A stretch of 63,654 nucleotides of DNA, the filler included, from Octopus bimaculoides (lineage: Eukaryota), in assembly GCF_001194135.2 (NCBI RefSeq). It is 6 parts of 4 records of this genome, joined end to end, with 100 filler letters (N's around TTAATTAATTAA, not from the genome) between each part and the next. Parts side by side here need not be neighbours in the genome. Positions count along the whole stretch, not along the records: positions 1 to 29,541 come from NC_068988.1; 5 more parts are not named here. The stretch is one strand, 5' to 3'. The position numbers were made by a program, and so were the translations under genes. This document shows positions 5,158 through 25,002 of this stretch, in pieces; positions within the stretch are counted from its first letter, which is position 1; each line of letters opens with the position of its first letter. The notes under the pieces are model-generated. The model ran no database searches, was not told the DNA's origin, and saw only the letters and a program-made list of their open reading frames with translations.

Positions 5158-5220
5158 CGGCTTGCCATCTTTGCCAGGTGGTCCGACGGGGCCAGTTGGT
5201 CCGCGCTCACCAGGATCACC
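5158..5220 (-). CDS. Collagen alpha chain, 63-bp Gly-X-Y segment GDPGERGPTGPVGPPGKDGKP
   Basis: Seven perfect Gly-X-Y triplets with phase-0 donor CCG|gtaagt. Preceded in frame by a possible acceptor tttatctgcag|G. Confidence 0.92.
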
Positions 5221-9737: not shown

Positions 9738-10259
9738 ACATTTAAATTTCTTTATATAAATACATTTAAAAAATGTTTTTGTTTTACATGTTTCGGTTGT
9801 TTATAAACCTTATCAAAAATATTTACTTAAATGAAATATGTGGAGAAAAAAAATAATAAAATTAGTAATAAAATAAACGTTCATAGTGTAATTTTCTTTT
9901 TCCTGTAAATGAACGCATTAACAAGGAAATGCATTTCCTAAAGTATCGAATCTAAATTCTTTAAGCTGGAAACACTGAAACTATTTGTATATTATTCATA
10001 AGAAATAAAGATGAGACGTTGAATAGATGCATTTCTGTGAAGACTTCAGGGGAGATAACTTTACGACGACTATTAGTGCTGCTGCTGCTTATTTGACTGC
10101 TGCGGCCGCCCCTCCTTTTGAAAATAGTTTTGACCACACTACTTGATTTAGCATCACAGATAGCAACTGAAGTTGCTACTAGCAACGCCACGCAAAATAA
10201 TGGAAATTACCACGTGCTCTTGCAGGGAAAAGAAGAGTACACTATGAACGTTTTTTGAC

Positions 10260-22980: not shown

Positions 22981-23034
22981 AATTTGTCCTTGTGGTCCTC
23001 TGATTCCAGGAATACCAGGGTCTCCTTTAGAACC
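22981..23034 (-). CDS. Collagen exon, 54 bp, GSKGDPGIPGIRGPQGQI
   Basis: tatattttag|GGT...ATT|gtaagt; six Gly-X-Y triplets, phase 0-0. Confidence 0.95.
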
Positions 23035-23263
23035 CTAAAATATAATAAAAATTATTAAGAATGGTATTTTTGAAATGTGTTTAAATACATTTCTTCATCA
23101 TTTATTATGATTTTTATGAAGATATGTATGAATCACATCATAAAATACTNNNNNNNNNNNNNNNNNNNNNNNNNNNNNNNNNNNNNNNNNNNNNNNNNNN
23201 NNNNNNNNNNNNNNNNNNNNNNNNNNNNNNNNNNNNNNNNNNNNNNNNNNNNNNNNTATATAT

Positions 23264-23520
23264 AGTATTCATCACCACTTCAACGTTGGTGCTGTCTAAG
23301 AGATGACGATATTGCTGTTTTAACCGCAGGAAGACATCTCCTCCAAGTGGTTTATTCAGTGCGCTTTCGCACTCGATATCTATTGCAAGCGGGAGAGAAC
23401 CCCTGCCACCCTAACTCCGAGACCACCAGACCACGTGATTTCGAATCTTATTGGATCTCTTCAGCGGTGGGCACTCATTTTCCGGGCATAGCAGTAGTCT
23501 AACCTAGCTTGCAATATATA
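23264..23520 (-). mobile_element. Hammerhead-bearing non-autonomous element (homologous to 60973-61283)
   Basis: Colinear similarity with 60964-61215. A 10-bp inverted repeat TATTGCAAGC (23381-23390 / 23507-23516) encloses the ribozyme. Hairpin AGTGCG-AAAG-CGCACT and AATAAA lie downstream on the minus strand. Confidence 0.7.
23423..23470 (-). ncRNA. Type I hammerhead ribozyme, core intact
   Basis: CCACCG-CTGAAGA-GATC(CAATAA)GAT[T]C-GAAA-TC(ACGT)GG-TC-TGGTGG: stem I 6 bp, stem II 4 bp with one bulge, short stem III with palindromic loop, GUC cleavage triplet. Confidence 0.75.
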
Positions 23521-23934
23521 GAAAATAGGAAACTAGTCCGTTAGAAAATGTCTGCACGAGATAGAAGCAGTGTATTTTTGTATGTATCTTTCAAATGAAT
23601 TTCGGTAAAAATGTCGGGGACGATTGTTTTCAACATAGCAACCAATGTATTTTGCCGACAATTGACGAAAGTTAGAAATATTTTAGGGGACACTAAAATG
23701 GCTCAATTCTATTTTAGAAAAGGAATAGTACATCCGGAGTTCAATGATTTATTTTATTTAGCCGAAAGTGGGTAACCTTTCCTGAATGGGGTAGGTAGCA
23801 CCTCGCTTACTTTCAGATACAGAACAAATCAATTGCAGTGAATGATAGCAAAAAAAGAATCTTCTTACATTTAACACGACCATTGGTGTGGAACTAAGGA
23901 AGCTAGGCAAGTGATAAACGCGTCTTCATATGGG

Positions 23935-24133
23935 TTTTAAATGTTGGCACAAGGCTAGCAGTTGCCAGTCAAACACTGGTGTCAGTGTTTTACTGGTACT
24001 TAATTTTATCGACCCCTAAAGGATGAACGGCAAAGTCGACCTCGGCGGAATTTGAACTCAGAATGTAAAGACGGGTGAAATACCGCTAAGCACTTTAACC
24101 CGTGTGCTAACAACTCTGTCAGCTCGCCGCCTT
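23935..24133 (-). mobile_element. SINE family A
   Basis: Same diagnostic blocks as the other family A copies. Confidence 0.85.
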
Positions 24134-24709
24134 CGTCTTCCTTCTGTTGTTAAGAACTGCCTTAGAATGTGTCTTTACATAGCCAATTGTTTTATACTTC
24201 TTTTTTATTTTTTCTCAGTTACCACCAAAGCTTGAATCTGTGCACCTTGTGTCTTTGCTTTGTAAACCTTTATGCAGAACGGTGAATCTGAGGCCTTTTG
24301 CCGCACTCTGTATAAGCAGCTGATTATAGTCTGTGTGCACTGGGACACGGATAATCAACAAGAACAGGGATCTGAATACAACCATAAACATTAATACAAT
24401 TGTATGCATACACACGTGAGCACCCACCGTGCTCCTTCCTATGCGCACGCAAATGTAAAGTTATATTCATGCAGATGTGTGCGCGCACTGGTATACAAAA
24501 TATACACAAAGATGCAAGTGGCATATATGTATACCACAGTCCAGTCTCCCTTTCGGTAACATACACACGCACCTCCCCTGCCCCCACACAGTGAGCATTA
24601 AAGCGAAACATGGGAAAAGGCAATACACATAGGACACCTCTTAAATCGCTTATCAGCCCTGGAGACTAGGATCAGCGTAGTTTTGGTGCGTTTAAAATTT
24701 GATTACGCA

Positions 24710-24957: not shown

Positions 24958-25002
24958 GTCTTTACCGTCATTTCCTGGCTGGCCGGTTGGTCCCATAAAT
25001 CC
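24958..25002 (-). CDS. Collagen exon, 45 bp, GFMGPTGQPGNDGKD
   Basis: cttttataaag|GGA...GAC|gtatgt; five Gly-X-Y triplets, phase 0-0. Confidence 0.93.

Follow-up and report, generated by a model that had tools for sequence, protein, structure and literature searches.

A hammerhead motif in a collagen intron of Octopus bimaculoides lies within an old, solo copy of a dispersed repeat, probably a non-LTR retrozyme

The whole stretch of Octopus bimaculoides DNA that was analysed here, 63,654 bases in length and referred to as the window, carries on its minus strand six phase-0 collagen exons of 45, 54 or 63 nt (28355-28302, 26709-26656, 25002-24958, 23034-22981, 21229-21176 and 5220-5158), with unbroken Gly-X-Y coding and AG/GT ends. 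Fibrillar collagens typically have exons of 45 and 54 nt that open with a complete glycine codon. It should be added that the 63-nt exon at 5158-5220 sits 16 kb beyond the other five, and that a frame at 9964-10206 (minus strand), with a signal-peptide-like hydrophobic start and without ATG, lies between collagen exons; the exon and the frame may be due to chance or part of a second gene. The third and fourth exons enclose an intron of 1,923 nt (24957-23035), inside which a hammerhead ribozyme motif is present in the sense orientation to collagen, as the initial annotation had proposed. The surroundings of the motif are as follows.

24958-25002, minus strand: phase-0 collagen exon of 45 nt, upstream of the host intron (sequence reading)
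22981-23034, minus strand: phase-0 collagen exon of 54 nt, downstream of the host intron (sequence reading)
23150-23265, no strand: N gap (23150-23256) and TA run beside the 3' end of the repeat unit that bears the motif; one insertion border is hidden here (sequence)
6534, 12337, 12573, 14267, 20322, 26951, 30503, 32222 and 37887: other sites of the approximately 150-bp repeat family found at 23982-24136

The distance from the predicted cut site to the 3' splice site is 394 nt, in agreement with the approximately 390 nt given initially, and includes a 107-N gap, so that the true distance may differ. The same gap, together with the TA tract that one unit border enters, makes a target-site duplication unreadable. 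The host intron also holds, at 23982-24136, a dispersed repeat of about 150 bp, which is 75-84% alike in nine other places of the window and which is a candidate octopus SINE-type element. There are 29 N runs in the window, several of them pairs of 44 bases 12 bases apart (29542-29641 and 60811-60910), and these paired 44-base runs look more like masking than assembly gaps. Stop-broken frames at 57406-58432 (minus strand) resemble, by eye, the cysteine-motif-bearing tail of a protein from a non-LTR retrotransposon; a Pfam search of seven window frames returned weak matches only, with a single weak and unrelated match for the 57406-58432 frames.

The hammerhead and the helices around it were delineated as listed below, all on the minus strand.

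23423-23470, minus strand: type I hammerhead motif with complete core (sequence, descriptor scan with shuffles, match to Rfam HH9)
23443-23457, minus strand: stem II and loop CAAUAA, with an extra bulged U at 23444/23445 that is absent from many copies of the repeat family (sequence, contig alignments)
23430-23439, minus strand: stem III (A-U, U-G, C-G) and palindromic loop ACGU (folding)
23381-23516, minus strand: extended stem I rod enclosing the hammerhead, closed by a 10-bp helix of 23516-23507 with 23390-23381 (predicted fold, family letters)

Stem I is formed by 23470-23465 with 23428-23423 (6 bp), a G-U pair adjoining the core; the core segments CUGAAGA and GAAA occupy 23464-23458 and 23442-23439, and stem II pairs 23457-23454 with 23447-23443, leaving one U bulged. 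Cleavage is predicted between 23429 and 23428, after the GUC triplet. All 13 conserved positions (CUGANGA, G10.1-C11.1, GAAA and the NUH triplet, here GUC) are present, and thus every part of the type I hammerhead that the initial annotation had placed on the minus strand, i.e. core nucleotides, GUC triplet and 6-bp stem I, was found where it had been located.

A type I descriptor returned this site as its one match in the window. In block-wise dinucleotide shuffles the strict descriptor matched in none of 300 and the loose one in a single shuffle out of 300, and a chance motif was rejected on these counts; the hammerhead motif at 23423-23470 is confirmed as real, beyond chance. Compared with Rfam, the motif scores 23.8 bits (E 0.0056) for Hammerhead_HH9, less than the 52 required for gathering, and its loop II is similar to that of the HH9 consensus; the Rfam scan of the whole window gave zero families at gathering score.

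All three helices of the hammerhead can pair, yet prediction does not give the hammerhead fold as the minimum, placing it 7.6 kcal/mol above the ensemble. Predicted pair probabilities in context were 0.0 for stem III as a monomer and 0.07-0.30 for stem I, values to be read with the fact that folding programs leave out tertiary contacts and under-rate folds with a short stem III. The 7-bp and 10-bp helices that had been proposed to extend stem I do form in the predicted fold, and the long rod surpasses shuffled sequence to a mild degree only (z -1.62; 18 of 200 shuffles as good). Stem III with its palindromic loop is predicted at 0.0 kcal/mol alone and at -11.7 kcal/mol as an intermolecular duplex, consistent with the earlier suggestion of a weak stem III with a loop able to dimerise.

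What the initial annotation had overlooked is that the motif is a member of a dispersed, tandem repeat, two copies of which lie in the window.

23271-23571, minus strand: solo, near-complete unit (301 bp) of an approximately 355-bp, retrozyme-type repeat (contig alignments, GC)
60964-61359, minus strand: second family copy (similarity search, 73% over 216 nt, E 1e-28)

A search of public sequencing runs with 23270-23560 listed 20 runs, 13 of organism A, which is the source species, and seven of organisms B-E (shares 0.19-0.23); RNA runs did not figure among them, which carries no information on expression. Contigs from four of 24 listed DNA runs, one each from A and from the related organisms B, C and D, were aligned on 23270-23900 at 80% likeness, giving 269 (A), 221 (B), 195 (C) and 285 (D) contigs, most of them less than 90% alike. 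The pile-up of contigs spans 23270-23571 only and ends sharply, and the flank at 23578-23900 was covered by one contig each in A, C and D and by none in B, where the run is of low depth, so that the zero is uninformative. Summed depth over the hammerhead bin, which is not a copy number, was 48 (A), 40 (C) and 50 (D) times that of the flank; depth peaked at 169 (A), 77 (C) and 147 (D), with dozens of distinct contigs per site. It should also be added that B, C and D share contigs with identical coordinates and difference counts and that two runs are from one study, so the comparison covers approximately one or two independent lineages.

Head-to-tail arrangement of the family is seen from the joint of 23571 to 23271, which was present in all four runs (2, 1, 1 and 1 contigs, five in total), with 23-25 letters between the unit ends. 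Many family records have 29-35 extra letters at about 23525. The collagen-intron copy lacks these (about 30 bp, at 23525-23527) as well as the 23-25-bp linker, and the full unit thus amounts to 301 + 23-25 + about 30, i.e. approximately 355 bp. GC content of the unit is 46%, against 34% in the flank, and the unit folds as a rod (z -1.69, matched by five of 100 shuffles). A full tandem array was not encountered in the window. In the second copy, the main arm (60976-61218) has the CUGANGA half of the core deleted, while the inverted arm (61358-61242) runs from unit end over a 28-nt linker to unit start, a junction identical in order to that of the reads. The collagen-intron locus does not hold two units in succession that both have complete hammerheads; one border lies behind the N gap there, and the nearest relative is the core-deleted copy 37 kb away. 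The longest listed stop-to-stop frame over the unit has 78 codons and is on the opposite strand, and among frames of at least 70 codons no reverse transcriptase-endonuclease frame was recognisable by eye beside either copy.

Some further observations concern the family and the unit. At window position 23463, family copies carry C for U at core position 4 in 29-43% of depth, and loose contig ends link this U4C core to a seven-base loop II, indicating a sizeable U4C subfamily; a viroid hammerhead with U4C is slower and still works in vivo, as reported in PMC3088659. A 6-bp hairpin followed by AAUAAA lies inside the unit (23347-23373, minus strand), where family copies differ at 23346-23347, and this AAUAAA signal, which might act as a cryptic polyadenylation site in the intron, may be private to the collagen-intron copy. 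Matches of a 21-letter family motif in metagenome contigs (two loci, each matching 24 nt only, without the second half of the hammerhead) were dropped as chance.

Comparison of the collagen-intron copy with its family points to erosion. Of the 24 unit sites listed, 16 have a different majority letter in three or all four of the runs, ten of these 16 differences being transitions; the family majority mixes subfamilies (C at U4 in 29-43%, C in stem III in 34-38%), so some of the differences, drawn from 40 of 182 rows, may be subfamily letters. Placing the family letters at the 16 sites changed the predicted folding energy from -90.6 to -103.3 kcal/mol, a gain of 12.7 kcal/mol, whereas random placement of the same 16 changes gave a mean of +4.2 kcal/mol and reached -12.7 in none of 500 trials. 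The family therefore appears to carry a selected structure that the collagen-intron copy has been losing. Preference was given to this energy test with random controls because the pair classes of single sites vary with the sequence that is folded: in the copy's own model, six of ten paired sites favour the copy and four the family. Four rod sites keep their partner whichever model is used, and at each of them the family has a Watson-Crick pair where this copy has a wobble pair; a wobble pair is kept in the collagen-intron copy at five of the ten helix differences.

Within the hammerhead, the core-adjacent G-U pair is A-U in 82-94% of family depth and the U-G of stem III is C-G in 34-38%. The extra U of stem II (23442-23445) is absent in 19, 12, 10 and 18 contigs of the four runs, as summed by hand, and a further 9-16 records break off at 23444. 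The predicted cost of the hammerhead fold, 7.6 kcal/mol in the copy, is 1.7 kcal/mol with these three family-type letters. Completeness of the core is compatible with neutrality: with 16 changes over 301 nt, an untouched 13-nt core has a probability of 0.49 under neutral decay, and the 48-nt motif carries one of the 16 differences against about 2.6 expected (P 0.27; Fisher 0.48), neither an excess nor a deficit of conservation. The copy is, on these predicted folds, eroding, its helices weakened relative to the family and its core intact; accordingly, the earlier wording "apparently intact" holds for the 13 core positions and fails for the helices that surround them.

The insertion is old. Contigs of C and D bridge the unique flank and the unit, running from 23705 to 23445 and to 23451, and the insertion therefore predates the split of these organisms from A. 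Over unit and flank together, the orthologous contigs show 16 differences in 261 nt (94% identity), and over flank alone 14 in 193 nt (93%); among the 40 of 182 rows listed, seven of the 16 differences fall in the flank, hence at most nine in the unit, and the split between the two is uncertain. The word share of 0.23 (six of 26 words) is that expected at 4-5% divergence, and the shared words could cluster in one conserved stretch. Two or three records at least 99% identical, without a listed place, occur in each of organisms B, C and D. Altogether, the aligned sequences indicate an insertion common to C and D and about 6-7% diverged, like its flank. For organism C, the alignment of the orthologous contig ends at 23445, at the extra U, eight further letters remaining unaligned, which suggests a difference of organism C at this U and of stem II between species. 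The initial annotation had named decay of the core in the manner of neutral repeat sequence, or absence from related species, as findings that would speak against its ribozyme. The unit as a whole was found to decay largely like a neutral repeat, and the insertion is not absent from relatives, being common to C and D. For the proposed tuning of collagen output no support emerged from the DNA comparisons; the earlier interpretation is, overall, partly supported.

On the tested features, the locus would belong with metazoan non-LTR retrozymes, as a solo unit of inactive type. As in the retrozymes described by Cervera and de la Pena 2020 (PMC7229834; Mytilus galloprovincialis) and by Li, Clavereau and Pollet 2026 (10.64898/2026.07.22.740005), there is one canonical type I hammerhead per unit. 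The unit of about 355 bp with GC below 50%, the rod-like fold, the head-to-tail joints and the dispersed solo, often degenerate copies likewise resemble what is described for the approximately 350-390-bp retrozymes of the mussel. Size and GC (about 355 bp, 0.46) are within the retrozyme range of 150-450 bp and less than 50% GC, and the size, GC and helix lengths reported for metazoan retrozymes (PMC7229834, PMC4209133) fit the unit. Unlike the mussel retrozymes, the octopus repeat is of a different sequence family, and the collagen-intron locus is a solo, deleted and eroded unit, characterised here at the DNA level. By the rule of two consecutive units given by Li et al. (10.64898/2026.07.22.740005), a source that also argues for a Penelope origin of retrozymes and describes dispersed monomers, this locus does not count as "active".

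The amniote hammerheads HH9 (RECK) and HH10 (C10orf118; Rfam RF02275) are similar in being type I, intronic and sense, with a 6-bp stem I and a similar six-base loop II. For these, a low copy number and strong conservation in mammals and birds are reported, and they are regarded as descendants of repeats of this kind (PMC3088659, PMC6155905, PMC7761336). The octopus motif, in contrast, belongs to a many-copy repeat, reaches 23.8 where the gathering score is 52, and lies in a unit that diverges about as fast as the flanking intron. The possibility of an orthologue of amniote HH9 was rejected, the likeness being that of the shared type I pattern. With regard to cephalopods, 235 hammerhead_1 loci were counted in the giant squid genome (PMC6962438), and type I hammerheads are thus already known there in hundreds; the passage that gives this count describes no unit, family or gene context. 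A literature search on hammerheads and retrozymes in octopus and cephalopods found no report of this locus or of an octopus retrozyme; subscription papers were mostly outside the search, and supplements of PMC7229834 and PMC4209133 may list cephalopod motifs.

In our opinion, the observations are quite probably explained by a hammerhead residing in a single old copy of a dispersed, head-to-tail repeat of about 355 bp, likely a non-LTR retrozyme, this copy probably decaying as a passenger that affects collagen little or not at all. By analogy with mussel, coral and axolotl retrozymes (PMC7229834), tandem units would be transcribed and cut once per unit by the hammerhead, the monomer would be closed into a circle, mainly by the host tRNA ligase, and the enzyme of a Penelope-like element would copy the circle back into DNA. 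The present copy landed beside the TA run of the intron, in the sense direction, before the source species split from C and D, and has since lost about 30 bp, its helices becoming weaker than those of the family majority. The transcribed intron would rarely adopt the active shape, and cutting would be slow or absent, since stem III is predicted to be unstable alone, dimers are reported to rescue hammerheads with a weak stem III (PMC4209133), and there is no second hammerhead nearby to provide a dimer. Slow intronic ribozymes are stated to leave splicing unaffected (PMC10919898, citing Fong et al. 2009). For comparison, the mussel retrozyme, with units of 350-390 bp, is reported to cut at about 0.1 per minute and that of coral at about 0.8 per minute (PMC7229834). 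At an assumed 2 kb/min, these intact-retrozyme rates (0.1-0.8/min) would give 2-15% of transcripts cut before the splice site is made, and 0.01/min would give 0.2%; with an intron assumed to last 5 minutes, the corresponding values are 39-98% and 5%. Since the calculated cut fraction spans 0.2% to 98%, the real cleavage rate matters.

These calculations bear on a rather unlikely alternative of the same retrozyme origin, according to which the monomer still cuts usefully and some of the collagen pre-mRNA is cleaved, a side effect that is not under selection and is tolerated because splicing or exon tethering outruns it. The complete core and triplet, the ability of all stems to form and the wobble pairs kept at half of the helix differences would allow for this, as would the report that most invertebrate retrozyme hammerheads cut as monomers (PMC7229834), but the stem II bulge, the U-G pair of stem III, the 7.6 kcal/mol penalty and the low fraction cut before the splice site is made, under the assumed speed and intact-retrozyme rates, all weigh against it. 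We consider it very improbable that the host keeps the hammerhead, as in amniote RECK, as a domesticated intronic ribozyme that competes with splicing and sets collagen output, and we see just as little probability in a retrozyme copy under domestication, in which the flanks of the unit decay, the 48-nt hammerhead is invariant across octopus species and cutting competes with splicing of the collagen intron. The sense orientation near the 3' splice site, HH9 as best Rfam match with its similar six-base loop II, and retention of the insertion in organisms C and D would be in line with domestication; repeats of this kind are regarded as the probable source of the intronic hammerheads of amniotes (PMC3088659, PMC6155905), and the CPEB3 intronic ribozyme is described as able to tune its mRNA (PMC10919898). 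Against this, the unit diverges about as fast as its flank and its structure is eroded, the contig of organism C with its eight left-over letters at 23445 hints at a difference in stem II, and the 394 nt to the splice site mismatch CPEB3 timing unless cutting is very fast; location in an intron says little, 42-44% of Xenopus retrozyme copies being reported as intronic anyway (10.64898/2026.07.22.740005).

The origin of the unit itself could be seen otherwise, namely as all that remains of a protein-coding Penelope-like element, its terminal pseudo-LTR with the ribozyme, rather than as a member of an independent retrozyme family, and to this we assign hardly any probability. Similarity to the pseudo-LTR hammerheads of Penelope-like elements (Cervera and de la Pena 2014, PMC4209133; Craig et al. 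2021, PMC8557442) consists in the type I fold, the inverted arm of the second copy and the insertion at a TA run beside the collagen-intron copy, inverted arms and TA targets being described as footprints of Penelope-type insertions (PMC8557442); the same footprints are, though, expected if Penelope enzymes move retrozymes in trans. The minimal Penelope hammerhead is reported to have a helix II of 7-8 bp, a helix I of 4-5 bp and no stable helix III (PMC4209133), whereas the helices here are canonical (helix I of 6 bp, helix II of 4 bp, helix III present). Moreover, the tandem unit is short, its copies join head to tail directly with a linker of 23-25 letters, and beside neither copy was a reverse-transcriptase frame seen by eye among frames of at least 70 codons.

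Understood as a decaying retrozyme copy, the locus adds one more animal retrozyme family and, as it stands, matters little. It illustrates how what looks like an "intact intronic ribozyme" can turn out to be a repeat in which mutations have so far missed the core. As an old, sense and species-shared insertion with a complete core, it is furthermore a test case for the way hosts deal with such copies, be it by purging, tolerating or keeping them. Were the motif conserved and active, it would represent an invertebrate retrozyme turned gene regulator, a step that has so far been only inferred for the amniote intronic hammerheads.
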